Below the pieces are notes generated by a model that made no database searches, was not told the origin of the DNA, and saw only the letters and a program-made list of their open reading frames with translations. The position numbers and the translations under genes were made by a program. This document shows, in pieces, positions 10,312 to 61,744 of a DNA stretch of 64,000 nt (positions within the stretch are counted from its first letter, which is position 1; each line of letters opens with the position of its first letter). This stretch comes from Squalus acanthias (taxonomy: Eukaryota), in contig CM059432.1 in the NCBI GenBank assembly GCA_030390025.1, positions 6,944,001 to 7,008,000 on the forward strand, written 5' to 3'.

Positions 10312-11075
10312 GGCCCAAAAATTCGGCCATTCTCGGGTGAGTACTCAGTGCGTACTCACCCGTATTCATTCCCGAAGTGCCGGTTTCCTGCATGCACTGC
10401 GCATGCGCGGGAAACCGGCACTTCCGGTATGGTGAAGGGGGCGGTTCCTAGGTGAACCGCGTGCGCGCTAGAGGCTGCGCGCACGCAGCACACTTAGATT
10501 TTTTTCAGGTTTCAACGCGAGGGTAAGTATGGAAGATTCTACGCTAGTAAAAAGGAGGCGTAAGACCCCTTTTGAACAAGGTAAGTAGTTAATTAAGTAT
10601 AATTTAAAACATTTTTCAACAGGTTTATCTTTTTTAGAGACTTTAAAGAAAGGTAGGTTTATTTTTATAACTTTTAAAAAGTATTTTAATTTTTTCAAAA
10701 ATTTAAATTTTTGTTTAAAGTAGTTAATTTATTTAACTATAGTTATTTTATAAATGTGATGGTTTAAAAAAAAAAATTATTTGAGGTTTAGCTGTTCTTT
10801 TGGGGCCGATTTCAATTCACAGAATTGACAGGTCTCCTGTCAAATCTATGAATGAAAGATGGTCTGCTGCCATTGGCTCTCCATGGCCCACGTGATCCCA
10901 GGGGTCGCATCGCACTAACTGCGCCCCTGGAACACGCAAGCACTGCGCGCCGGCACTAGGGAGAGGCCCAGGACCCGAAGTTCCTGTGGGCCGAAAACAC
11001 AACGGCAGGCGCGGTGGGTAAGAGCGCGCGCGATCCTTACCCCCGCGGCAAGCCGGCCACGCGAATTTCTAGGCC
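10312..11075. mobile_element. PIF/Harbinger-type MITE (family B)
   Basis: TIRs GGCCCAAAAATTCG / CGAATTTCTAGGCC (12/14); flanks ATT/ATG form an imperfect 3-bp TSD; GC-rich ends with an AT-rich middle; internal similarity to 45625-46383. Confidence 0.75.
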
Positions 11076-16522: not shown

Positions 16523-17456
16523 GGATTAATTAAGAGGGGGAAAAATAGAATATGAGAGTAAGTTTGCAGGGAACATAAAAACTGACTGTAAAAGCTTCTA
16601 TAGATATGTGAAGAGAAAAAGATTAGTGAAGTCAAGCGTAGGTCCCTTGCAGTCAGAATCAGGGGAATTTATAATGGGGAACAAAGAAATGGCAGACCAA
16701 TTAAATACATACTTTGGTTCTGTCTTCACAAAGGAGGACACAAATAACCTCCCAGAGATGTCGGGGAACATAGGGTCTAATGAGAGGGAGGAATTGAATG
16801 AAATCAGTATTTGTAGGGAAATGGTGTTAGGGAAATTGATGGGATTGAAGGCCGATAAATCCCGAGGGCCTGATAATCTACATCCTAGGGTACTTAAGGA
16901 AGTGGCCCTAGAAATAGTAGATGCATTGCTGGTCATCTTCCAAAATTCTATAGACTCTGGAACAGTTCCCATGGATTGGAGGGTAGCTAATGTAACTCCA
17001 CTATTTAAAAAAGGTGGTAGAGAGAAAATGGGGAATTATAGACCGGTAAGCCTGACATCGGTACTGGGGAAAATGCTAGAGTCCATTATAAAAGATGTAA
17101 TAGCAGAGCACTTGGAAAACAGTGACAGGATCGGACAAAGTCAGCATGGATTTGCAAAAGGTAAATCATGCTTGACTAATCTACTGGAATTTTTTGAGGA
17201 TGTAACTGGTAGAATAGATAAGGGAGAACCAGTGGATGTGGTGTATTTGGACTTTCAGAAGGCTTTCAATAAGGTCCCGCATCAGAGATTAGCGTGCAAA
17301 GTTAAAGCACATGGGATTGGGGGTAAGGTACTGACTTGGATAGAGAACTGGTTGGCAGACAGGAAGCAAAGAGTTGGAATAAACGGGTCTTTTTCCGAGT
17401 GGCAGGCAGTGACTAGAGGGGTACCGCAGGGATCGGTCCTAGGACCCCAGCTATTC

Positions 17457-17496
<40 letters not shown>

Positions 17497-18450
17497 CTAG
17501 ACGAGGGAACTAGATGTAATATCTCCAAGTTTGCAGATGATACAAAGCTGGGTGGGCGTGTGTGCTGTGAGGAGGATGCAGAGAAACTCCAGTATGATTT
17601 GGACAGGTTGGGTGATTGGGCAGATGCAGTATAATGTGGATAAATGCGAGGTTATCCACTTTGGTGGCAAAAACAGGAAGACAGATTATTATCTGAACAG
17701 CAATAGATTGGGAAAAGGGGAAGTGCAACGAGACCTGGGTGTCCTTGTGCACCAGTCGCTGAAGGTAAGCATGCAGGTGCAGTAGGCGGTTAAGAAGGCA
17801 AATGGTATGTTGGCCTTCATAGCGAGAGGATTCGAGTACAGGAACAAGGATGTCTTGCTGCTGTTGTACAAGGCCTTGGTGAGACCACACCTTGAGTATT
17901 GTGTGCAGTTTTGGTCGCCTTATCTGAGGAAGGATGTTCTTGCCATGGAGGGAGTGCAGCGAAGATTTACCAGACTGATACCTTGGATGGCAGGAATGAC
18001 GTATGAAGAGAGATTGGGTCGATTAGGCTTATATTCGCTAGAGTTTAGAAGAATGAGAGGGGATCTCATTGAAACTTACAAAATTCTGACAGGACTAGAC
18101 AGACTAGATGCAGGAAGGATGTTCCCGATGGCGGGGGAGTCCAGAACCAGAGGACACAGTCTAAGGATAAGGGGTAAGCCATTTAGGACTGAGATGAGGA
18201 GGAATTTCTTCACCCAGAGAGTGGTGAACCTGTGGAATTCTCTACCACAGAAGGCAGTTGAGGCCAATTCATTAAATATATTCAAGAAGGTGTTAGATAT
18301 ATTTCTTAAGGCTAAGGGGATCAAGGGATATGGGGAAAAGGCAGGGACAGGGTACTGAATTTGGATGATCAGCCATGATCTCATTACATGGCGGAGCAGG
18401 CTCGAGGGGCTGAATGGCCTACTCCTGCTCCTATCTTCTATGCTTCTATA
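16523..18450 (+). mobile_element. 5'-truncated CR1 LINE ORF2, disrupted
   Basis: NYRPVSLTS, QHGF.KGKSCLTNLL, YLDFQKAF and [10 protein letters not shown]; (TA)16 expansion at 17461-17492; in-frame TAG near 17783. Confidence 0.96.
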
Positions 18451-18454
18451 CAAT

Positions 18455-19098
18455 TGGTATGTTGGCCTTCATAGCGAGAGGATTTGCGTACAGGAGCAAG
18501 GATGTCTTGCTGCAGTTGTACAGGGCCTTGGTGAGACCACACCTTGAGTATTGTGTGCAGTTTTGGTCGCCTTATCTGAGGAAGGATGTTCTTGCCATGG
18601 AGGGAGTGCAGCGAAGATTCACCAGACTGATACCTGGGATGGCAGGAATGACGTATGAAGAGATTTTGGGTCAATTAGGCTTATATTCGCTAGAGTTTAG
18701 AAGAATGAGAGGGGATCTCATTGAAACTTATAAAATTCTAACAGGACTAGACAGACTAGATGCAGGAAGGATGTTCCAGATGGCGGGGGAGTCCAGAACC
18801 AGGGGTCACAGTCTAAGGATAAGGGGTAAGCCATTTCTGACTGAGATGAGGAGGAATTTCTTCACCCAGAGAGTGGTGAACCGGTGGAATTCTCTACTAC
18901 ACAAGGCAGTTGAGGCCAACTCATTAAATATATTTAAGAAGGAGTTAGATATATTTCTTAAGGCTAAAGGGATCAAGGGATATGGGGAGAAAGCAGGGAC
19001 AGGGTACTGAATTTGGATGATCAGCCATGGTCTCATTAAATGGCGGAACAGGCTCGAGGGGCCGAATGGCCTGCTCCTGCTCCTATCTTCTATGTTTC
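18455..19098 (+). mobile_element. Second CR1 3' end in direct tandem with the previous copy
   Basis: Near-identical repeat of 17802-18450. Confidence 0.95.
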
Positions 19099-19184
19099 TC
19101 TTCCACGCTGTTGTTGAGTGGCAATCTTTGACCAGTATTTTATTTAAATTGCTGATTCTGCTTTTGAAATTCCTGCATATATCA

Positions 19185-23771: not shown

Positions 23772-23909
23772 GGGCTAGAAATTCATCTTGGGCGGTGGCG
23801 TAAAATGGACGGTATTGGATCGACCGTCCATTAGGGCGCTGCGTACAACAGGTGGCCGACCCGATACCGCCCCCGTTTTGCGCCACTGCTCGAGACGAAT
23901 TTCTCGGCC
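23772..23909. mobile_element. 138-bp hairpin MITE, Harbinger-type
   Basis: Long imperfect TIRs GGGCTAGAAATTCATCTTGGGCGGTGGCG... / ...CGCCACTGCTCGAGACGAATTTCTCGGCC; perfect 3-bp TSD GTT (23769-23771, 23910-23912). Confidence 0.85.
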
Positions 23910-28637: not shown

Positions 28638-28664
28638 ATCTGTGGAGAGAGAAACAGAGTCAAT

Positions 28665-29488
28665 GGGCTGGATTTTGTCAATGGGGACATGATGGAGGCG
28701 GGACTCCCACTTTTTGGGTTGTAGTCCCGCCTCCATCGACTTGTGGCCAACCCACTGTATTTTCCCTTGATTGACCTTGTTAAGCCCGCCCAGCGGGCTT
28801 AGCAGGCCAATCAAGGGTCCCTTGGATACAGGTAACGTCAGCCATTGAAATTTCATCTGTCAAGAGCTTTTGACAGATGAAATTTCAGCGTTTGACAGCT
28901 CTGTGAAGCTGTCAAACACTGACAATATGATTTCTAACATGAGTCCCTGTACTTAGACTCAGTTAGAAATCAATCCAGCACAGAAAGCAGAGACTGCAGC
29001 TTTTGACAGCTCCGCGGCCATTCTGCTTTCTGTGCCGTGGATGTGAGGGACTCCCGACACCTTAGCCTGCAAGACAAAGTTAAGGTAAGTACAAGTTCTT
29101 AAAACGCTTTACACACACCAAACACACTTACCTCTGCACTCATGCACCCATCACTCACCTGCACACCGGACATCTCGACCCCTCCAAGCCCTCCAGATCG
29201 ACGGTCCGCCTCGCTAAATCGGCGTGGTTCGGACCTGTCGGGAAGCCCACACTTCAGGGCCAAAAATAGGGATTAGGCAAAAACCTGCCTGTTAGCGACC
29301 TGTTAACAGGCAGTTTATGGGCACTAATCCCCTTCCCGCCTCGGGGAGGCGGGTCCCAGCACAGGTCGGGTACCCGCCTCCTCGGAAACTGGCATGGAGG
29401 CAGGATGGGTTCGGGACCCCTGAATCTGCTATTTTCCTACCCCACATGCCTCCAAACCCGCCTCCACGGGTCAATAAAAATTCTGCCC
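28665..29488. mobile_element. PIF/Harbinger-type MITE (family A), TSD AAT
   Basis: TIRs GGGCTGGATTTT / AAAATTCTGCCC; AAT at 28662-28664 and 29489-29491; the host sequence rejoins when the element is removed. Confidence 0.88.
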
Positions 29489-29880
29489 AATGTCTCAGGT
29501 CGGCGACCCTTCGTCAGAATTGGAAAAAGTTGGAGAAGTAACAGATATTTAAGCAAGTGTGGGGCAGGGAAAGGGGGGAGGGGAGGAAAGAACAAAAGAA
29601 AGGTCTGTGATAGGCTGGGAGGCAGGAGAGAGTAAAAGACAAACGGGATGATAGTGGGAGGCGAAAGGAGATGGTAATGGGACAAGTTAAGAAACTAAAG
29701 ATGAGTCTAGATGAGGTGTAAATGACAATGGCAGAATCCTCAGCAGCTGCCAAGTGAGAGAGAGAGAAAAACCTCGGCTCCCATGTTTTCTTTTATAGGG
29801 AACAGAGACAAAGTGCTTAACGGTTTTGTCATTGGCTGATAGCAAGTTAGCAAGTTTCATAGCGTCCTTTTGAGGTATGG

Positions 29881-39419: not shown

Positions 39420-40220
39420 GGGCCAGATTTTGCTGAACATGTAATAGCATCTAAACGCCATTATTAATGTGCAAATCGGCCAACAACTTGTATCGAGGAA
39501 GAGATACCCCGTGAATGGTGAATCGCCACAAGTTGCTGGACGATTTGCGCCGCCCCGCTGTTAGCTTCGCAAAAACAACATCTCGCACTTAACCTCCCCG
39601 TGATTTTCACGAAGTTGCTGCATTTGCACATTAATTGCCCATTAAAGAAATTTAAATCTAGTAATTAACAGCGTAAGTACCCTTTTAACGACGTGATAAT
39701 TGTTAATGACTATCAATGAACCTCCCGCCCAGAAAGTGAACAAGTGTCGCTTCTCATTCCTTCAGATTGTGAATTGTTTTAGGAGATTTAAAAAATGTCA
39801 AATTTTAAAAAATTTTGTCTTTTCCTTTCTGTCTCTTTTTCTTTCTCTCTCTCAATCCAATCTTTCTTTCCTTCTCTTTCCCTCTTTCTGTCTCTTTTTT
39901 TTCTCTCTCTCAATCCAATCTTTCTTTCCCTCTCTTTCTGTATCTGATTTGACATTGAATTCACCCACTCTAATTCAGCCTCCTTCCTCTGTTTCTTTCT
40001 CAATCCTGAAATCTCATTGGTTCAGGAGATAGACTGTTGGTCCCGTCATTCTCCATTCTCTGGGACTGTCACGTTCCCAGATGGTCCCGTTGCCCTCGTT
40101 ATCAGATCGCACTTCCAGCAACTTTGTGTGCAACATTTTTTTAAAAACCTAACAGTGCATGAGCAATTCCAACTAACAGGGCATGCCCCCGAGAGGCCCC
40201 GCTCCAGCAAAACCTGGCCC
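39420..40220. mobile_element. Harbinger-type MITE (family C)
   Basis: TIRs GGGCCAGATTTTGCTG / CAGCAAAACCTGGCCC (15/16); the TSD is not clean. Confidence 0.7.
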
Positions 40221-45624: not shown

Positions 45625-46383
45625 GGCCTGTATTTTCCGATGCCTACGGGTGTGTACGGGCTGTGTACACACCCGTAGGGGCCTCTCAAGTGTCGGTTTC
45701 AGGCATGTGAAGCACATGCGTTGAAAACCGGCACTTCGATCTGTCAAGAATCCTCTTGACAGATCCTCCGCCTGCCCTGGAGAAGGGCCTCTGCGGGGGG
45801 AGAGTTCCGCTTTCTGCACAACCTCCGCCCGCTGAAAATCTTTCAAAATCTTACGCCTGGTAAAAGGCTGCGTAAGGCCTGCTTTTACCAGCAAAAGAGT
45901 TTAAAAAAAGTAAAAAAAAATTAAAAAATTCACTCATTTATCATTTAAAATTAGTTTTAAAAAAGGTAAGTTTATTTTTAGCCCCGTAAATTTTTTTAAT
46001 TTTTTTCAAAAAATTTAATTTTTGTTTAAAATATTTAATTTAATGTAATTTTGACTAATTTTAAAAATGTGATTTAAAAAAAAGTGTATTTAATGTTTTA
46101 GTGGTTTTTTTTGAGTGATCCCCATTCAGACATTTGACGGATCTAAGCTGAGAGACCTGTCAAAAGTGTGAAGGGGGATTCCCTTCTTCCATTGGTTCCG
46201 CCTGACCCACGTGATCCCAGGGACACTTGTGCCCCTGGGATACGTGGGCCCTGCGCATTTCGTCGTGGAGAGGCCCAGGAACGGAAATGACCGGACCTCC
46301 GGAGCCCTCAGGTAAGGGCCATAGATTTTTTCCAGATCGGAGGCATCCGCACGCAGGAAGCCTCTGATCGGAAAATACGGGTC
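45625..46383. mobile_element. Harbinger-type MITE (relative of family B)
   Basis: TIRs GGCCTGTATTTTCCGAT / ATCGGAAAATACGGGTC (15/17); flanks GTC/CTC; internal blocks shared with 10312-11075. Confidence 0.78.
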
Positions 46384-48175: not shown

Positions 48176-48995
48176 CTCCAGTATAACTCCAGCCTAGTGA
48201 AACGTCACGCATTTAGTGCCCAGATATTCTATTAGGGTCTTCTGAAACTTATTTTTCAACTTTTTTTTGATACTAGGAGGGAGATATTAAAAGTTAAAGA
48301 CGCAAGGGTGGACCACTGCGCATTTGTCCAAACGACTATACACAGAGAATTCCTTTACGGATAACTAGATAAAAAGGCAGTATAACACTGGGGCTTCAGA
48401 TTCTAAGCCTACTGCGCTTAAGGACCTTTAAACTGAGTATCAACCTCTGAACTTTTTCTAGGGCTTCAATTTCAACCCACCATTTAAGGGAGCAAAACTG
48501 GACACAGTATTCTAAATGAGGCCTAACCAAGATTTTGCATAAGGACAGCATAGTATTTTTTTGTATTTAATTGTTCTGGCACTCTATTTACTTTTGCAAC
48601 ACTGGTCATGGACCTTAAGAGATTCACGTACTATAACTCCTAAGTCTTTAGTCTTTCTCTGCTCAACAGCCCTGAGCTCACGGCCCTGCACGGTGAACCC
48701 ATACTTGGTGCAAACCCTACCCAAGTGCCTATACTGGATTTATTTTTATTGAATGACACCTGCCTGCCCCATCGCATCTAGATCTGCTTGTAGTCTAGTT
48801 TCCTCAACATGGATCTGAACATCCACACAAATCTTAGTATTATCCGCAAACTTGTGGACAATTCCCCCGAATCCTTCGTCCAAATGATAGATAAAAATGA
48901 TGAAAAGCAAGAATAGAAGATAGGAGCAGGAGTAGGCCATTCGGCCCCTCGAGCCTGCTCCGCCATTCGATGAGATCATGGCTGATCATCCAAAC

Positions 48996-51980
48996 TCAGT
49001 ACCCTGTACCTGCCTTCTCCCCATATCCCTTGATACCTTTAGCTTTAAGAAATATATCTAACTCATTCTTGAATCTATTTAATGACTTGGCCTCAACTAC
49101 CTTCTGTGGTAGAGAATTCCACAGGTTCACCACTCTCTGGGTGAAGAAATTCTTCCTCATTTCTGTCCTAAATGGCTTCCCCCTTATCCTTAGATTATGA
49201 CCCCTGGTTCTGGACTCTCCAACCATTGGGAACATTCTTCCTGCATCTAGTTTGTCCAGACCTGTCAGAATTTTATATGTTTCGATGAGATCCCCTGTCA
49301 TTCTTCCATACTCCAGCGAGTATAAGCCCAATCTCTCCTCATATGTCATTCCTGCCATCCCAGGTATCAGCCTTGTGAATCTTCGCTGAACTCCTTCCAT
49401 GGCAAGAACATCCTTCCTCAGATAAGGTGACCAAAACTGCACACAGTACTCAAGGTGTGGTCTCACCAAGGCCCTGTACAACTGCAGCAGGACATCCCTG
49501 TTCCTATACTCAAACCCTTTCGCTATGAAGGCCAGCATACCATTTGCCTTCTTCACCGCCTGCTGCACCTGCATGCTTACCTTCAGCGACTGGTGCACAA
49601 GGACACCCAGGTCTCGTTGCACTTCCCCTTCTCCCAATCTATTGCCATTCAGATAATAGTCTGCCTTTCTGTTTTTGACACCAAAGTGGATAACCTCGCA
49701 TTTATCCACGTTATATTGCATCTGCCACGCTTCTGCCCACTCACCCAACCTGTCCAAATCATCCTGGAGTTTCTCAGTATCCTCCTCGCAGCACACACGC
49801 CCACCCAGCTTTGTGTCATCTGCAAACTTGGAGATATTAAATTTAGTTCCCTTATCTAGATCATTAATGTATATTGTGAATAGCTGGGGTCCAAGGACCG
49901 ATCCCTGCGGTACCCCACTAGTCACTGCCTGCCACTCGGAAAAAGACCCATTAATTCCTACTCTCTGCTTTCTGTCCGCCAACCAGTTCTCTATCCAAGT
50001 CAATACCTTGCCCCCAATCCCATGTGCCTTAACTTTACACGCTAATCTCTTATGCGGGACCTTATCGAAAGCCTTTTGAAAGTCCAAATACACCACATCT
50101 ACTGGTTCTCCCTTACCTATTTTACCAGTTACATCCTCAAAAAATTCCAGTAGATTAGTCAAGCACGATTTACCTTTTGTAAATCCATGTTGACTTTATC
50201 CGATCCTGTCACTGTTTTTCAAGTGCTCAGCTATTACATCCTTTATAATGGACTCTAGCATTTTCCCCACTACCGATGTCAGGCTTACCGGTCTGTAATT
50301 CCCCGCTTTCTCTCTACCACCCTTTTTGAATAGTGGGGTAACATTAGCTACCCTCCAATCCATGGGTACAGTTCCAGATTCCATCGAATGTTGGAAGATG
50401 ATCAGCAATGCATCTACTATTTCTAGGGCCACTTCCTTAAGAACCCTAGGATGTAGATTATCAGGCCCTCGGGATTTATCGGCCTTCAATACCGTCAATT
50501 TCCCTAACACCATTTCCCTGCAAATACTGATTTCTTTCAGTTCCTCCCTTTCATCAGACCCTATGTTCTCCAACATCTCTGGGAGGTTATTTGTGTCCTC
50601 CTTTGTGAAGACAGAACCAAAATATGCATTTAATTGAGCTGCCATTTCTTTGTTCCCCATTATAACTTCCCCCGCTTCTGACTGCAAGGGACCTACACTT
50701 GATTTCACTAATCTTTTTCTCTTCACATATCTATAAAAGCTCTTACAGTCAGTTTTTATGTTCCCTGCAAGCTTACTTTCATATTCTATTTTCCCCTTCT
50801 TAATTAATCCCTTTGTCCTCCTTTGTTGAATCCTAAACTGCTCCCAATCCTCAGGGTTACTGCTTTTTCTGGCCAATTTATATGCCCTCTCCTTGGATCT
50901 TATGCTATCCCTAATTTCCCTTGTTAGCCACGGTTGAGTCACCCTTTTTGTTTTATTCTTATGCCACACTGGGATGTACAAATTCTGTAGTTCATCCATG
51001 CAGTCTTTGAATGTTTGCCATTGCCTATCCACCGTCAACCCTTTGAGTGACATTCCCCAATCAATCCTACCTAATTCGCGCCTCATACCATCGTAGTTTC
51101 CTTTATTTAAATTCAGGACCCTAGTCTCTGATTCAACTACTTCACTCTCCATCCTAATGAAGAATTCTATCATATTATGATCACTCTGACCCAAGGGGCC
51201 TCGTACAACAAGATTGCTAATTAATCCTTTCTCGTTACATAATAACCAGTCTAAGATGGCCTGATCTCTGGTTGATTCCTCGACATATTGTTCCAGAAAA
51301 CCATCCCGTAAACATTCTCGGAATTCCTCCTCCACAGTATTTTTACTAATTTGGTTAGCCCAATCTATATGTAAATTAAAGTCACCCATGATGACTGCTG
51401 TGCCCTTACTGCATGCTTCTCTAATTTCCCTTTTAATGCCGTCCCCAACCTCCATATTACTGTTTGGAGGTCTATATACCACTCCCACTAACGTTTTCTG
51501 CCCCTTGTTATTTCTCAGTTCTACCCATACAGATTCCGCATCATCAGAGCTAATATCCTTCCTTTCAATTGTGTTTATCCCCTCTTTAACCAGCAATGCT
51601 ACCCCACCTCCCTTTCTTTTTTGCCTATCTTTCCTAAATATTGAATACCCCTGGATGTTGAGTTCCCAGCCTTGGCCACCCTGGAGCCATGTTTCTGTAA
51701 TCCCAATCAAATCATATTCATTTACCTCTATTTGCGCAGCTAATTCATCCACCTTGTTCCGAATGCTCCTTTCATTAAGACACAAAGCCTTCAGGCTTGT
51801 TTTTTTAACGCTCTCAGACCTATATGAATTATTATTTACTGTGACCATGTTTGATTTAAACCATTGAGTTCTTTGCCTTCTACTTTTGTTTTTCTCCTTC
51901 CTGTCTTTTGCTTTTATCCTTGTTTCCCTTTCCTCTGTCTCCCTGCTCAGGTTCCCAACCCTCTGCCACTTTAGTTTAAA
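48996..51980 (-). pseudogene. CR1 ORF2 (APE endonuclease + RT) with one nonsense change at 50196-50198
   Basis: ITETWL, YRPP, GDFN, SDHN, YLDFQKAFD and FADDTK; TAA stands where the paralogue at ~17136 has CAA (DRIG*SQHGF); 9-bp in-frame deletion in YEERLG(RLG)LYS. Confidence 0.93.
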
Positions 51981-54360: not shown

Positions 54361-56191
54361 GTGAGTGAGTCTCGAGCAACGCAAGATATTGGCTACAGCT
54401 GCTGCCTCAAGCAAACCTGGAGGCAAATGCAACTGCTATTAGTGAATGCATTCATTTCAGCAGCCTATTAGTGCAATAAACTCTGTGTGAAATCTTCCCT
54501 TTTAATCCCATTTGCTACTCTATATAATAACAAAATGCAACTACTAACAACAGCAGAGTATAGTTTGTTTCACAAACGAGGAAGATCTCACAACTAGTGA
54601 GTGAAATAAACTGGATATTTCACCGTTCCATTCAGTCTTTCCAACAGATGGAGAAACTAAGATACATAGAATCATAGAATATTACAGCACAGAAGGGGGC
54701 CATTCGGCCCATCGAGTCTGCACCGGCTCTTTCAAAGAGCAATCCAGTTACTCCCACTCCCCCCGCTCTTTCCCCATCTTCCTGCAAATCTTTCTCCTAA
54801 GTATTTAATTTGTTTTAATATACGGTTTAATAAATATTTGAATTGGGATAATTACAAGCAGGAATTTCCTCATTGTACCCTGTGAACAATTTGCCATTAA
54901 GGTGACTATCTGCCATTTTGACGTTCCCCATGGCTGGGAGAAAGTGTTAATTTGGCTGTACATTAAATAAAAAGCGAAAAAAACGATTGTAAGAAATCCG
55001 AACTAAAACCAGAGCATGCTGGACAGACACAACGTAATTCTGTCTATATCTGAAAACATATCGATTTTTACATAGAGATTGTTTCTCGGTACTGATTTTT
55101 TGCGAGGCTATTTCAGCTCCATATTACTACATGTTATCTTGAGTGAGTGGCCATATAATGGATACTGAGATACCTGAAAAGAATGAAAGATTTGGTTGTA
55201 GCTAACCTCACCATCAGTAGCTGTGCAAACAATTATACACTTGCCACTTCAATTCCATACATTAGACAAAAAGTGGTATGCGCATAAAGCCCGTGAATAT
55301 ATCATAAGAACATAAGAAATAGGAGCAGGAGTAAGCCGTTTGGCCCCTCGAGCCTGCTCTGCCATTCAATAAGATCATGGCTGATCTGATCTTGGCCTCG
55401 ACTTCCCCGTAGCTCAATATCTGTCTATCTCCGCCTTGAATATATTCAATGACTCTGCCTCCACAGCTCTCTGAGGTAGAGATTTCCAAAGATTCACGAC
55501 CCTCTGAGAGAAGAAAATCCTCCTCATCTCCGTTTTAAATGGGCGACCTCTTATCCTGAAACTGTGCCCCCTAGTTCTAGATTCCCCACGAGGGGAAACA
55601 TCCTCCCTGCATCTACCCTGTCAAGCCCCCTCAGAATCTTATATATTTCAATAAGATCACCTCTCATTCTTCTAAACAACAACAACAACTTGTATTTATA
55701 TAGCGCCTTTAACGTACTCCAATGAGTATAGGCCCAACCTGCTCAACCTTTCTTCATAAGACAACCCCTTCATCTCGGGAATTAACCTAGTGAACCTTCT
55801 CTGAACTGTCTCCAATGTAAGTATATCCCTCCTTAAATAAGGAGACCAAAACTGCACGCAGTACTCCAGGTGTGGTTTCACCAACACCCTGTACAGTTGT
55901 AGCAAGACTTCCCTACTTTTACACTCCATCCCCCTTGCAATAAAGGCTAACATTCCATTTGCCTTCCTAATTACTTGCTGTACCTGCATGCTAACTTTTT
56001 GTGTTTCATATATGAGGACCCCCAGATCCCTCTGTACCGCAGCATTCTGTAATCTCTCTCCATTTAAATAATAATTTGCTTTTTTATTCTTCCTACCAAA
56101 GTGGATAACCTCACATTTTACGACATTATACTCCATCTGCCAAATTTTTGCCCACTCACTTAACCTATCTATATCCCTTTGCAGACTCTTT

Positions 56192-57632
56192 GGGGGCGAT
56201 TTTCTCACTGGAGGCGAGATGGAGGCAGGTTTCAGCTTGGGTGTGTCAGAAACTCTCCTCCACTGATAGTTTTCAAAAAATTGAGATTTTCCCATGATTG
56301 GCCACTTGATTTCAGAGGTGCGGGATGCCCTTGCTCAATTAGTGTTTTGGGACTGAGACTCGCCTCTGTTGACAGCACTTTTCCAGTCTGATTTTATGGC
56401 TTCTTGCTCCCTTGGCTCATTCCACAGCATTTCTGCGTCTCCTGCACCACCTCCAACATCTTTTGAGATTCGAATATCCAATTCCAAGGCAAGGGCCTAC
56501 CCGAGGCTCTCAGATGAGGCGCTGCAAATGTTGTTTGAGGGGGTGAGAACTAGCATGGAGGTCCTCTTCCACTCATCTCGGAGGAAGAGGCCTGCCAAAG
56601 AAACCAAGGCTGTGTGGGTGCAGCTGGCAAGGGATATAACCTCCAGGTCTGTGTGCAGATAGGGAGACTGTTTCTGTGTATTGATGAAATGCCATCCCTG
56701 TTGGAAAGCATTAACATGATTTGATGCCAAAATGCTGGCGTTATGCCATCTGTTAATTAGCCTTAGGCAGCTCCACATTGCAGGCACCGCCACACTTGCG
56801 TTGTCAGGTTGGTGGCCTGACTGAAAGGAGGCCAGAGAGTCATGTCCATTGTCAATGAAGTCCTGGCATGGAGCCAAGGACATGTGCCAACTTGGCCAAC
56901 CTATACAAATCTGGCCATAATAAGTTAATCCCTTGCATCCCTGGCAGCCATGTGCTCGCGTGCTGCCACTGCCGCTGGTCGAAACACCAGCGCTCTGATC
57001 TCCTCCTGCTCCTCCTCCTCCTCCAGATGATCCTCCTTCTCATCTTCATCCTCATCCTCATCCTCATCTGAGGTCCAAGGTGAAAGGAAATGAATGTTTC
57101 CCATTCTGCTTGCAGATGCCTCCTCTGAGGAAGCGCTCATTGTAAGCGGGGCGAGGTTCTTCCCAGGAGGTCCCACAGTTGATTGAGTCAAGCTGCAGCA
57201 CCTCCGACTTTGGAAGGCCTTCTAAAAGTGCTCAGAGACCTTTTAAAGCCAAGGTCTGGCACCTGCAAGTAAGCCTTGCTGCAGTGAACGAGGTCTTGTT
57301 AGACCTGCAGCAGTGAGGAGGTCACCCACGAGTCAACCCGCCAGGTTTACCTGGCGTGGTTCAGAAGTTGCGTGAAGCACGCCGAAATGATGGTAAATTC
57401 AAGAGGGCCTCTCAAAATAGGATTAGAGAGGCCCTTAACAAGCATTTGCAGGTAGTTAATTAACGCTATTGCCAGCAGGAGGCAGGAGCGTTTCCCGACC
57501 GCCAAAACCGGCACCGGCGAAATCCCACGGAGGCGGGTTGGAGTCGGGTTTCTGACCCGACCTCAGTAATTCGAATTTTCCCGCCTTTCCCGACTCCAAA
57601 CCCGCCTCCTCCAGCGTCATAAAATCGTCCCC
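56192..57632. mobile_element. Non-autonomous PIF/Harbinger element with a Myb/SANT-like remnant (+) and an acidic transposase C-terminus remnant (-), TSD TTT
   Basis: TIRs GGGGGCGATTTT / AAAATCGTCCCC; TTT at 56189-56191 and 57633-57635; peptides RAYPRLSDEALQMLFEGVRTSMEVLF...KAVWVQLARDITSRS and DEDEDE...AARDARD*LIMARF. Confidence 0.88.
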
Positions 57633-57825
57633 TTTGTGTCCTCCTCACAACTTGCTTTCCCACCTATCTTTGTATCATCAGCAAATTTGGCTACAGTACA
57701 CTCGGTCCCTTCATCCAAGTCATTAATATAGATTGTAAATAGTTGAGGCCCCAGCACTGACCCCTGTGGCACCCCACTAGTTACAGTTTGCCAACCTGAA
57801 AATGACCCATTTATCCCGACTCTTT

Positions 57826-58630
57826 GGGCTGGATTTTGCCAATGGGGAGCTTTTGGAGGCGGGACTCCCACTTGTTGGGTTTCAGTCCCGCTTCCATCAA
57901 CTTCTGGCCAACCCAAGCTATTTTCCCTTGATTGACCTTGTTAAGCCCGCCCAGCAGGCTTAGCAGGCCAATTAAGGGAAAGCCGGTTACAGAGAACGTC
58001 AACGTATGACGTTTCATCTGTCAAAAATTTTTGACAGATGGATTGTCATCGTTTGACAGCTCTGTGAAGCTGTCAAACACTGACATTCTCTGTAGTTTGA
58101 TGAATTCTTGAATTCAAGACTCATCAAACCTCTTTCTTTTGCAGAAATTAGATGGTTGTTGCATTGGAGAATGCAACGGCCATCTGTCATCTCTGCCGCG
58201 GAGGTGCGAGACTCTCCGCATACCCACCGATTGAAGCCTGCAGGAAGAAACAAAGGTAAGTACACTTTTTCTAACACTTTCCACTTACCTCACATACTCA
58301 CCTCTCCACACTTGCACCCATCACTCACCTCCACAGCACACTTTTGGACCCCTCCGACCCCTACAGCCCCACTACTCGCCTCAGTGACCCTGGCGGGGTT
58401 CGGAGCCTTCGGGAAGCCCGCACTTTTGAGGGTAAAATGGGGATAATCCTCTTATCTAACAGGCAGATAAGTGGCACTAATCCCCTTCCCGCCTCCAAGG
58501 AGACGGGACCCGGCGCGGGACGCTTACCTGCCTCCTGGGAAGATGGCATGGGGGCGGGTTGGGCACCCGCCCCCAAATTCTGCCATTTTCCCGGCAGTCC
58601 CGCCTCCCCAGGGCTGGCAAAATCCAGCCC
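57826..58630. mobile_element. Harbinger-type MITE (relative of family A), perfect 15-bp TIR, TSD TTT
   Basis: GGGCTGGATTTTGCC / GGCAAAATCCAGCCC; TTT at 57823-57825 and 58631-58633. Confidence 0.92.
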
Positions 58631-59390
58631 TTTGTTTTCTGTTCGTTAGCCAATCCTCTATCCATGCTAATATATTACCCCCAACCCCGTGAGCTCTTAT
58701 CTTGTGTAGTAACCTTTTATGTGGCACCTTATCGAATGCCTTCTGGAAATCCAAATACACTACATCTACTGGTTCCCCTTTATCCACCCTGCTCGTTACA
58801 TTCTCAAAAACCTCTAGTAAATTTGGCAAACACGATTTCAATTTCATAAAACCATGTTGACTCTGCTTGATTGTATTATGATTTTCTAAATGTCCTGCTA
58901 TTACTTCCTTAATAATGGATTCCAGCATTTTCCAATGAAAGATGTTAGGCTAATTGGCCTGTAGTTTCCTGCTTTCTGCCTCCGCCCCCTTTCTTGAATA
59001 GTGGCGTTACATTTGCGGTTTTCCAATCCGCTGGGACCTCTCCAGAATCCAGGGAATTTTGGTAGATTACAACCAACACATCCACTATCTCTGCAGCCAC
59101 TTCTTTTAAGACCCTAGGATGCAGACCATCAGGTCCAGGGGACTTGTCAGCCTTTAGTCCCATTAGTTTGCCTAGTACTTTTTCTCTAGTGATAGTCATT
59201 GTTTTAAGTTCCTGCTTCCCTATAGCCCCTTGATTATCAATTATTATTGGGATGCTTTTAGTGTCTTCTGCCGTGAAGACTGATACAAAATATTTGTTCA
59301 AAGTCTCTGCCATTTCCCTGTTTCCCATTATTAATTCCCCAGTCTCATCCTCTAAGGGACCAACGTTTACTTTAGCTACTCTCTTCCCTT

Positions 59391-60805
59391 TTCAAGAAAG
59401 GAGGGAGAGAGAAAACAGGGAACTACAGGCCAGTTAGCCTGACATCAGTCATCGGGAAAATGCTGGAATCCATTGTTAAGGAAGTGGTATCAGGGCACTT
59501 AGAAAATCATAACTTGATTAGGCAGAGACAACATGGTTTAATGAAAGGGAAATCGTGTTTGACAAATTTATTAGAGTTTTTTGAGGATGTAACTAGCAGG
59601 GTAGATAAAGGGGATGTAGTATATTTGGATTTCCAAAAGGCATTCGATGAGGTGCCACATAAAAGGTTATTACACAAGATAAGGGCTCATGGGGTTGGGG
59701 GTAATATAATGCATGGATAGAGGATTGGTTAACGGACAGAAAACAGAGAGTAGGGATAAACGGATCTTTTTCAGATCCACTAATCCCCTTCCCGCCTCGG
59801 GGAGGCGGATCCCAGCACAGGTCGGGTACCCGCCTTCAGCGAAACTGGCATGGGGGCGGGATGGGGTCGGGACCCCCGAATCTGCTATTTTCAATCCAGA
59901 CCTGCCTCCACGGCTCAATGAAAATTCTGCCCAAAGAGTCTGCAAAGGGATATAGATAGACTAAGTGAGTGGGCAGTAAGGTGGCAGATGGAGTATAATG
60001 TAGGGAAATGTGAGGTTATTCACTTTAGTAGGAAGAATAGAAAAACAGAAATTTTTTTAAATGGCGAGAAACTTTCAAATGTTGGTGTTCAGAGAGATTT
60101 GGGTGTCCTTGTGCAAGAAACACAGAAAGCTAACATGCAGTTACAGTAAGCAATAAGGAAGGCAAATGGCATGTTGGCCTTTATTGCAAGGGGGTTGGAG
60201 TATAAGAGTAAGGAAGTCTTGCTACAATTGTACAGGGCCTTGGTGAGACCGCACCTGGAGTACTGTGCACAGTTTTGGTCTCCTTATCTAAGGAAGAATA
60301 TACTTGCCTTGGAGGCGGTGCAACGAAGGTTCACTAGATTGATTCCTGGGATGAGAGGGCTGTCCTATGATGAGAGATTGTGTAGAATGGGCCTACACTC
60401 TCTGGAGTTTAGCAGAATGAGATGTGATCTCATTGAAACATACAAGATTCTGACATGGATTGACAGGGTAGATGCTGAGAGGTTGTTTTCCCTGGCTGGA
60501 GTGTCTAGAACTAGGGGGCATAGTCTCATGATAAGGGGCCGGCCATTTAAGACGGAGATGAGGAGGAATTTCTTCACTCGGAGGGTTGTGAATCTTTGGA
60601 ATTTTCTGACCCAGAAGGCTGTGAATGCTGAGTCTTTGAGTATATTCAAGGCTGAGATAGATAGATTTTTGGACTCATCAAGGGATATGGAGATCGGGCG
60701 GGAAAGTGGAGTTGAGGTCCATGATCAGCCATGATCTTATTAATTGGCGGAGCAGGCTCAAGGGTCCGTATGGCCGACTCCTGCTCTTATTTCTTATGTT
60801 CTTTT
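59391..60805 (+). mobile_element. 5'-truncated CR1 inserted in opposite orientation into the minus-strand CR1
   Basis: NYRPVSLTS, YLDFQKAFD, RPHLEYCAQFWSP; tail ttcttatgttct. Confidence 0.92.
59777..59932. mobile_element. Right end of a family A Harbinger MITE; its left part and adjacent CR1 sequence are deleted
   Basis: Highly similar to ~29322-29488; ends AAAATTCTGCCC followed by AAA-GAGTCTGCAAAGGG. Confidence 0.85.
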
Positions 60806-61744
60806 GCTCTTATATACCTGTAGAAGCTCTTACTGTCTGTTTTTATATTTTTTGCTAGTTTACTTTGATAATCTATCTTCTCCCTCTATTATTTTTTTGA
60901 TCATCCTTTCCTGGTTTCTAAAAATTTCCCAATCCTCTGGCCTACCACTAATCTTCGCAACATTGTATGCCTTTTCTTTCAATTTGATACCATCCTTAAC
61001 TTCCTTCGTTAGCCATGGATGGTTCATCCTTCTCGTAGAGTCTTTCTTTCTCACTGGAATAAACCTTTGCTGAGAGTTGTGAAATATCTCCTTAAATGTC
61101 TGCCACTGGTTATCTACCGTCTTACCCTTTAATCTATTTTCCCATTCCACTTGAGCCAACTCTGTCTTCATACCTTTGTAACTGCCTTTATTTAAGTTTA
61201 GGACACTAGTTTCAGACCCAAGTTTCTCACCCTCAAACTGAATTTGAAATTCAATCATGCTATAGTTGTTGATCAGTAGTTATCAGATTTGCAATAGTTG
61301 TTGGAGAAGGAAAAGTCATTCCTTTTGCAATGTTAGCCCATTGTGTGTTAAATTTGAATTGCACCATTTAGTGTGATGGTTTTCTTTTTTGTTTATTCGT
61401 TTCGGGGATGTGGGCGTTGCTGGCAAGGCCAGCATTTATTGCCCATCCCTAATGGCCCTTGAGACGGTGGTGGTGAGCTGCCTTCTTAAATGGCTGCAGG
61501 TGTTTATCAAAGCAAAAATCTAAACGCAATAAGTAGTTTGCAGTATGGTGCAATAAGAGAATTCTATGTTCAAGTTAAGTTGATGTGTATACCAGATTCA
61601 CACTTACTTTTATAAATTCAAAGGAATTATTTCTACATTCAATGTGTACACCGGTCAAGGTTAGTCCTAAGCTGCTCTTGGCAGTATTTTAGGAATTAAG
61701 TGAATCCTGTTGTCTTCTGTCAATTTTGAGGTTTTCTTAACTTT

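Follow-up and report, generated by a model that had tools for sequence, protein, structure and literature searches.

The zebrafish transposon Harbinger3_DR inserts into the target AAACAC-CWG-GTCTTT (PMC3016246, PMC2836001), and an extended target preference has been stated for the superfamily as a whole (PMC2836001). Harbinger3_DR and Harbinger3N_DR resemble the elements reported below in having a 3-bp TSD within a longer palindrome and a Myb-like gene. Dada offers another likeness, its members being DNA transposons that share a single position within a multicopy sequence (PMC3706591). Harbingers were undetected in the elephant shark, and other cartilaginous fish remained to be examined (PMC9179366). 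Herein, we describe four Harbinger-type elements (E1-E4) which, coming from a shark, bear on that question. They lie in a 64,000-nt stretch of Squalus acanthias DNA (the window), where two families adjoin the same base of two CR1 copies. We consider it likely that this coincidence reflects ordinary Harbinger target choice, the motif deviating slightly from the known one. The behaviour is known for the superfamily; the motif variant is new.

The first element, E1 (56192..57632, plus strand, 1441 nt), is a non-autonomous Harbinger-type element delimited by its TIRs, its TSD and contigs carrying the empty site, and it occupies what we call CR1 site 1 between GACTC-TTT and TTT-GTGTC. To its left lies the 3' part of the host LINE, comprising the end of ORF2 and the tail (55303..56191, minus strand; BLAST against the window's other CR1 copies). 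This segment ends in the half-site GACTC (56184-56188) and the TSD TTT (56189-56191), and its ORF2 reading includes SLQRDIDRLSEW in translation. To the right, a reverse-transcriptase segment (57633..57825, minus strand; Pfam RVT_1 E=1.4e-8 and ORF2 reading) begins with the TSD TTT (57633-57635) and the arm GTGTC (57636-57640) and ends with the arm GACTC (57818-57822) and a further TTT (57823-57825). There, at CR1 site 2, begins E3 (57826..58630, plus strand), an 805-nt MITE-like element recognised by its TIRs and flanked by GACTC-TTT and TTT-GTTTT, with the right arm GTTTT at 58634-58638. The upstream part of the host CR1 continues at 58631..59385 (minus strand; BLAST to the copy at 49963-51173) and resumes at ~60800-61258, past a nested copy. 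The host LINE combines its RT domain with a short-repeat 3' tail, such tails being common to nine copies; we take it to be CR1 rather than L2 or some other related LINE. The fourth element, E4 (28665..29488, plus strand, 824 nt, MITE-like), lies outside CR1 between GAGTC-AAT (arm at 28657-28661) and AAT-GTCTC (arm at 29492-29496). All three flanked elements are thus as the initial annotation had read them.

That annotation had also reported a family A MITE ending at 59932, before AAA-GAGTC, in a separate plus-strand CR1. The TIR end and the CR1 site stand, but the element is a remnant, E2 (59778..59932, plus strand), the last 155 nt of a MITE that its identity to E4 places in the E4 family. 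Likewise, there are indeed two CR1 copies, but the plus-strand one (59388-60806) is nested in the minus-strand one, which resumes at ~60800. The 5' part of the nested copy (59388..59774, plus strand; alignments, 88% identity to the host copy) runs up to a deletion junction, where three filler bases (59775-59777) directly precede E2. The 3' TIR of E2 adjoins site 1 in the 3' part (59933..60806, plus strand), which opens with the remaining TSD AAA (59933-59935) and the arm GAGTC (59936-59940). By alignment, ~657 nt of the MITE and ~163 nt of CR1 are missing, including the left TSD, so that the TSD of E2 can be checked on one side only and its insertion is read from a single end. A deletion removed the 5' part of E2. 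Site 2 of the nested copy is empty and reads TACTC-TCT-GTTTT on the minus strand.

Empty-site contigs were compared in 4 of 21 listed runs and were common in each of the four. Contigs of all four skip 1444 nt (56187->57632; 26, 14, 18 and 13 contigs), that is, exactly E1 plus one 3-nt TSD, which confirms the E1 insertion with its TSD. In all four runs, empty-site contigs also link 57632 to 59937 on opposite strands. Together with the alignment, they bear out the claim that one nucleotide was used twice: the junction at 59932 is the CR1 triplet of the left junction of E1. Among the joints and loose ends listed (15 of 1,652 and 24 of 13,367, respectively), nine joints were empty site 1, five were empty site 2 and one was unrelated; no other Harbinger end at the CR1 site was among these 15 joints, too few to weigh either way. 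The loose ends point to a CpG variant of the arm, GCGTC, alongside the GTGTC of the window. No contig in the four runs spanned the whole E1-E2 locus. Diverged contigs covered E1 from end to end in 4/4 runs, which makes E1 a multi-copy family.

The elements had been called different, and they do belong to separate families, but these are related through common end motifs. All seven ends of E1-E4 read GGG-N4-ATTTT, followed by GGAGGCRGG after 17 nt (left) or 11 nt (right). TIRs of 12-14 nt with a GGG start bound E1, E3 and E4 (in E3, 14 nt are identical), with 3-bp TSDs of TTT, TTT and AAT, respectively; E2 retains one TIR. E3 and E4 are 78.6% identical, and E2 shares 90.3% identity with the 3' end of E4 and 78% with E3, while giving no alignment with E1. 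Within E1, the first two thirds of a Myb/SANT-like domain are preserved as a gene remnant (56483..56659, plus strand; Pfam Myb_DNA-bind_5 E=0.0027, 18 bits, under the cut-off of 21.7). Three of its five phmmer matches carry Myb_DNA-bind_5 above the cut-off, and it is 40% identical to P0005 across 53 aa; a word-index protein search with it found no relative (nine candidates). This remnant supplies the Myb/SANT-like gene by which PHIS elements are recognised; E2-E4 have no such gene and are linked to E1 through the common ends. Translation of E1 also gives an acidic stretch with a short conserved-looking end and an internal stop (56898..57075, minus strand), possibly, we assume, the C-terminus of a Harbinger transposase; its Pfam matches were low-complexity only, and an Atlas search was empty. 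A DDE transposase sequence was not found in the E1-E4 copies by Pfam or Atlas searches, nor was an autonomous copy found within the window. As a separate matter, the TIR pattern occurred at no loci in viral contigs and at 86 loci in metagenome contigs; none of the 86 aligns to the window by blastn, and we thus regard them as chance matches.

Might the two occupied sites descend from a single event? A single ancestral insertion could have been duplicated or gene-converted between inverted CR1 copies, or a rearrangement could have placed the MITE end without transposition; the copies are in fact nested, inverted and 3.7 kb apart, and a deletion lies at the E2 locus. The arm GAGTC, though, is faced by the N17 end of E1 but by the N11 end of E2, and beyond the terminal motifs the two elements share nothing alignable. 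Their opposite orientation and different families exclude a CR1 ancestor already carrying the insertion, the case that the initial annotation had named as fatal to its claim. The two CR1 hosts differ by 12-15%. Their identity around the site is 93% over 30 nt, 90% over 60 nt and 85.5% over 297 nt, the last also being the figure for the nested copy 3' of site 1 (297 nt); no near-identical tract betrays a gene-conversion patch at site 1. Moreover, the TIR of E2 stops exactly at the TSD register given by the empty-site contigs, and even if the transposase had made the adjacent deletion, the target would have been used. We therefore hold any such single origin to be extremely improbable and return to two independent insertions.

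What, then, do the insertion sites share? The consensus proposed for them, GASWC-WWW-GWSTC, is exact in two of the three full sites, whereas the right arm of E3 has two mismatches; it was drawn from the very sites tested, only three full sites and one half site. Column conservation from -1 to -8 over the six half-sites of E1, E3 and E4 reached 32, against 23.0 +/- 2.2 at random WWW sites, and was attained in 64 of 200,000 permutation draws with E2 excluded and WWW centres conditioned on. Position -5 is G in six of seven half-sites. A target preference beyond the TSD, one of the PHIS features, is thus present, with n small. The strong palindromic preference first claimed holds as a palindromic preference beyond the TSD, but a tightness of 13 bp would rest on seven half-sites in which one CR1 sequence counts twice. 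Scored with the zebrafish arms, the sites of E1, E3 and E4 reach 8, 7 and 8 of 12 against a background mean of 3.6 (upper 0.9%, 3.7% and 0.9%); taken alone, that 12-position motif predicts poorly in CR1, with 15 host positions scoring >=8 and 69 scoring >=7. In favour of a preference, the host CR1 (1,831 nt) contains ANNC-WWW-GNNT four times, two of these being the occupied sites; against it, 3/5 ASWC-WWW-GWST and 36/39 ANNC-WWW-GNNT sites across the window are unoccupied.

Random insertion would make the double occupancy of site 1 a rare event (~5e-4 to 3e-3, by arithmetic from motif counts), yet taken alone it is weak after the look-elsewhere effect, since the window was selected among many for that coincidence. 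One might accordingly suppose chance with a weak preference for an A/T-rich TSD only, seen in a selected window, with local hopping or open chromatin adding to the clustering: n is small, many windows were read, and E1, E2 and E3 lie within 3.7 kb. These three represent three families, so one neighbour did not hop from another. The permutation result, obtained with WWW centres conditioned on and E2 left out, argues against chance, as do both CR1 sites being predicted by a motif from E4 only, i.e., from outside CR1 (among 1,818 host CR1 positions, it ranks site 1 within the first 3 and site 2 within the first 15). Four further elements of the window also speak against it, carrying A at -4 in 8/8 half-sites (0.285^8 = 4e-5; three with imperfect TSDs). 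We thus regard chance as very unlikely, and site reuse is itself less surprising than it was first taken to be, since an extended target preference was already described for the superfamily.

The opposite extreme would be a tight specificity of ~13 bp, with the CR1 RT site as the main harbour taking a large share of insertions, breaking CR1 ORF2 and sparing host genes in a Dada-like manner. Three of the window's four clade members do lie inside CR1 RT sequence. With the elements excised, GASWC-WWW-GWSTC occurs twice in 58 kb, and both exact 13-mers are occupied; six CR1 copies cover site 1, the two with the motif being occupied and the four without it empty (1 in 15 by arithmetic). If true, a LINE would be a safe harbour for transposons at the cost of a broken RT gene, and the window's younger CR1 subfamily, which is without site 1, might reflect escape. 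That same subfamily, however, counts against such a harbour, and so do the location of E4 beyond CR1 and the imperfect second site taken by E3. The empty site is present in many contigs, and in run X1 the summed contig depth at the left end of E1 is ~1/30 of that at the CR1 flank (74,105 vs 2,353,555), a ratio that is not copy number. Four other Harbinger-like elements in the window fit only the loose form A..Y-NNN-R..T. Overall, a CR1 harbour appears unlikely to us, and we doubt that a near-13-bp palindrome is read so tightly that one CR1 RT codon triplet takes at least a tenth of the clade's insertions. The recurrent genome-wide landing site that the initial annotation saw in an abundant CR1 subfamily is best taken as a conjecture.

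We therefore keep to ordinary target choice. E1-E4 would be non-autonomous members of one Harbinger (PHIS) cut-and-paste clade, mobilised in trans by a Harbinger transposase and a Myb-like partner, as the Myb remnant and the known biology suggest. Their integration complex may read two symmetric half-sites, ~GASWC or at least A(-4) and C(-1), around an A/T-rich triplet, where a 3-nt staggered cut would leave the observed TSD. By chance, one CR1 subfamily would carry a sequence of this kind within its RT-coding region, ~15 codons past the FADD motif, with a weaker second site 190 nt off. Each of the two families would have met its target there and inserted, independently of the other, at an identical triplet of a different CR1 copy, and a later deletion would have taken the left part of one insertion. 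Occupancy of site 1 fits this reading (both copies with the motif hit, none of the four without it). The motif is also used outside CR1, as the E4 site demonstrates, and CR1 is probably a passive, repeated carrier of it, not something that the transposon seeks. Harbinger insertions at one repeat position are consequently not proof of shared ancestry and make poor presence/absence markers. A transposase that prefers 11-13 bp might have a certain appeal as a tool for integration, although Harbinger3_DR already provides that.

Finally, we would like to compare these elements with the described systems. Dada is strictly specific to conserved small-RNA genes and makes 6-7 bp TSDs (PMC3706591). Our elements are also found away from the repeat (two of four at CR1 site 1, one at site 2, one outside CR1), which is itself a LINE in decay, with other subfamilies lacking the site. 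Plant PIF and the mPing Tourist-like MITEs are alike in being non-autonomous, with TIRs, an A/T-rich 3-bp TSD and an extended preference, which spans 9 bp there and apparently 11-13 bp here (PMC2836001). PIF/Harbinger in the narrow sense has a TWA TSD, found in none of our four (PMC4482050, Han et al. 2015), and the ANT of Pangu is compatible only with AAT/ATT (PMC4482050). NuwaI shares the GGG-starting TIRs (7/7 ends here), the Myb/SANT gene, an animal host and a 3-bp TSD, but is defined by a CWG TSD, seen here in 0/4 (TTT, TTT, AAT, AAA) (PMC4482050). The present variant, with GASWC arms, an A/T triplet and GGG-starting TIRs, thus belongs to neither the CWG nor the TWA class of the PHIS scheme as published. 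This points to an arm recognition that may have greater age and stability than the central triplet. Harbinger3_DR differs in its CWG centre (here TTT/AAA/AAT) and in A at -5 (here mostly G); no intact transposase is seen here, and the preference here is read from seven half-sites. The arms A-S-W-C...G-W-S-T agree with those of Harbinger3_DR at -4, -3 and -1, and partly at -2.

Two Harbinger-type elements of the window occupy the identical nucleotide of two CR1 copies, as the initial annotation had claimed. The window contains four TIR elements of one kind, three of them complete and one a fragment. E1 (56192-57632) and E3 (57826-58630) lie 190 nt apart inside the same minus-strand CR1-type LINE, each with a TTT duplication; E4 (28665-29488) is located outside CR1 and is flanked by an AAT duplication. 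E2 (59778-59932), in the plus-strand CR1 copy 59388-60806, had been described as a MITE. It does represent the 3' end of an element of the E4 family (90.3% identity to the end of E4 and 78% to that of E3, with no alignment to E1), but only these last 155 nt are present, about 657 nt of the element and 163 nt of CR1 being gone, left TSD included. Three filler bases bridge the deletion ends. At this junction (59762-59778), the filler completes a 5-bp inverted repeat of the sequence just upstream; templated end joining produces such traces, for which this single case is weak evidence. The plus-strand host copy is 5'-truncated and nested, inverted, inside the minus-strand copy. Both belong to one subfamily and are 85-88% identical; the minus-strand copy is picked up again at about 60800-61258. 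E3 (58001-58129) and E4 (28764-28926) also contain internal palindromes 35-55 nt long, and the motif GGAGGCRGG / CCYGCCTCC recurs several times near both ends of each.

The coincidence of the two sites is evident from the flanks: the E2 TIR adjoins AAA-GAGTC, which read on the other strand is E1's left flank, and the target triplet (site 1) encodes the K of EEDTK-SLQ within the RT domain. Contigs from all four sequencing runs compared (three organisms) contain the empty site. Those omitting 1444 nt (the length of E1 and a single triplet) numbered 26, 14, 18 and 13 per run (main row), and those passing from E1's right flank to E2's flank on the opposite strand numbered 13, 6, 12 and 4, the best run possibly being the assembly's own source and then not independent of it.

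It might be supposed that E1 and E2 descend from one already-inserted ancestor or reflect gene conversion. All seven element ends read GGG-N4-ATTTT, followed by GGAGGCRGG after 17 nt (left ends) or 11 nt (right ends), and these terminal motifs are all that E1 and E2 have in common. The GAGTC arm is faced by a 17-type end in E1 and by an 11-type end in E2, so that the two elements are oppositely oriented. Moreover, identity between the host copies is 85.5% on the downstream side and 88% upstream, and no stretch at the site comes close to full identity. Together, these observations rule out both a shared ancestor and conversion. Thus, E1 and E2 are indeed distinct, independent insertions. The common ends also make the 'different' elements one clade, whose members would be expected to inherit the same target preference.

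A palindromic target preference was borne out as well, if perhaps in a looser form than the proposed GASWC-WWW-GWSTC: the flanks are symmetric and their motif is beyond chance, albeit at small n. Column conservation over positions -1 to -8 was 32 for the six half-sites of E1, E3 and E4 (E2 was excluded), against 23.0 ± 2.2 for random triples of WWW sites, among which 32 was reached in 64 of 200,000 draws. A half-site taken from E4 only ranked site 1 in the top 3, and site 2 (the CR1 triplet holding E3) in the top 15, of 1,818 host CR1 positions. Neither test rests on the double hit, which by itself proves little: arithmetically, its chance is about 5e-4 if insertion is uniform, 3e-3 if only WWW is required, and some 0.07 to 0.5 with the looser and tighter motifs, and it is weak evidence because the window was chosen from many. 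Published zebrafish arms matched 8, 7 and 8 of 12 positions at the sites of E1, E3 and E4 (mean 3.6); along the host CR1, 15 positions scored at least 8 and 69 at least 7, and the zebrafish motif alone is therefore a poor predictor. The background comprised 58,290 nt of the window with eight elements cut out. Here the exact consensus occurred twice, both times occupied, which is circular, the motif being derived from these sites; ASWC-WWW-GWST occurred five times (two occupied) and ANNC-WWW-GNNT 39 times (three occupied). Six CR1 copies cover site 1: both with the motif are occupied and all four without it are empty. For site 2, a further copy, at 17.4 kb, matches ANNC-WWW-GNNT and is unoccupied.

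The window has four more Harbinger-like TIR elements, all from families other than those of E1-E4, at 10312-11075 (TSD ATT/ATG), 23772-23909 (GTT/GTT), 39420-40220 (AAG/AGT) and 45625-46383 (GTC/CTC), the first and last being related (71% over 277 nt). In all eight of their half-sites, position -4 is A and position -1 is a pyrimidine; the TSD is perfect in only one element, which leaves the boundaries of the other three less certain. Since none has GASWC arms, the tighter form may be particular to the E1-E4 clade.

On the basis of TIRs, 3-bp TSDs, a Myb remnant and the extended preference, we place E1-E4 as putative non-autonomous Harbinger/PHIS transposons; a DDE core was not seen in the window's copies. 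E1 retains the initial portion of a Myb/SANT-like domain, which Pfam matched below its cut-off (E=0.0027). A word-index protein search with this remnant gave no match; a full phmmer scan gave five, namely three clear Myb_DNA-bind_5 proteins and two unrelated repetitive proteins, one match being 40% identical over 53 aa. The minus-strand acidic stretch of E1 may resemble a transposase C-terminus, for which Pfam and Atlas searches gave no support.

TIRs, TSDs, empty sites, independent insertions and symmetric flanks were observed directly for E1-E4. The RT gene of one CR1 subfamily contains the motif twice, so that copies of this subfamily offer repeated targets, and E2 was truncated by a later deletion. 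A younger CR1 subfamily (1128-2267, 16538-19099 and 48909-50796; copies 90-99% identical) lacks site 1. Recurrent use of the CR1 site genome-wide, as put forward in the initial annotation, is a hypothesis. Empty CR1 sites are plainly common: 14 of the 15 contig joints listed, of 1,652, are empty sites. Summed contig depth, which is not a copy number, was about 1/30 of the CR1 flank for E1's end in run X1, while E3's interior had between one fifth and two thirds of the flank depth. The loose-end consensus after the triplet (57636-57640; run X1, 110 contigs, agreement 0.69) reads GCGTC, where the window has GTGTC; hence many CR1 copies may mismatch W of the proposed consensus, and decay of a CpG at this site might bring it closer to the motif. 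A TIR pattern scan found 0 loci in viral contigs and 86 in metagenome contigs, none of which aligned to the window by blastn. Sixteen loci of one metagenome data set (L008, L022, L025, L030, L035, L038, L041, L047, L052, L056, L057, L071, L073, L077, L081, L084) share a common repeat with an internal TIR-like pattern and conserved sequence on both sides, likewise unrelated to the window by blastn.

Compared with known systems, the TSDs of E1-E4 are neither CWG, which defines NuwaI, nor TWA, which defines PIF/Harbinger in the narrow sense, in the text of the PMC4482050 scheme, whose figures and supplements may hold families of this type. In published work, the superfamily as a whole is described as having an extended target preference, which spans 9 bp in plants and, in vertebrates, 15 bp (PMC2836001), the Harbinger3_DR target is AAACACCWGGTCTTT (PMC3016246), Dada is a strict target-specific form (PMC3706591), unlike E1-E4, and no Harbinger is reported from the elephant shark (PMC9179366). 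Among the literature matches listed, titles and abstract openings mentioned neither this motif nor a landing site in CR1, a scope that excludes Repbase, Dfam and subscription journals. Overall, the same-site insertions are real and are explained by the known Harbinger target preference; what is new here is a motif variant and one more repeat carrying such a motif.
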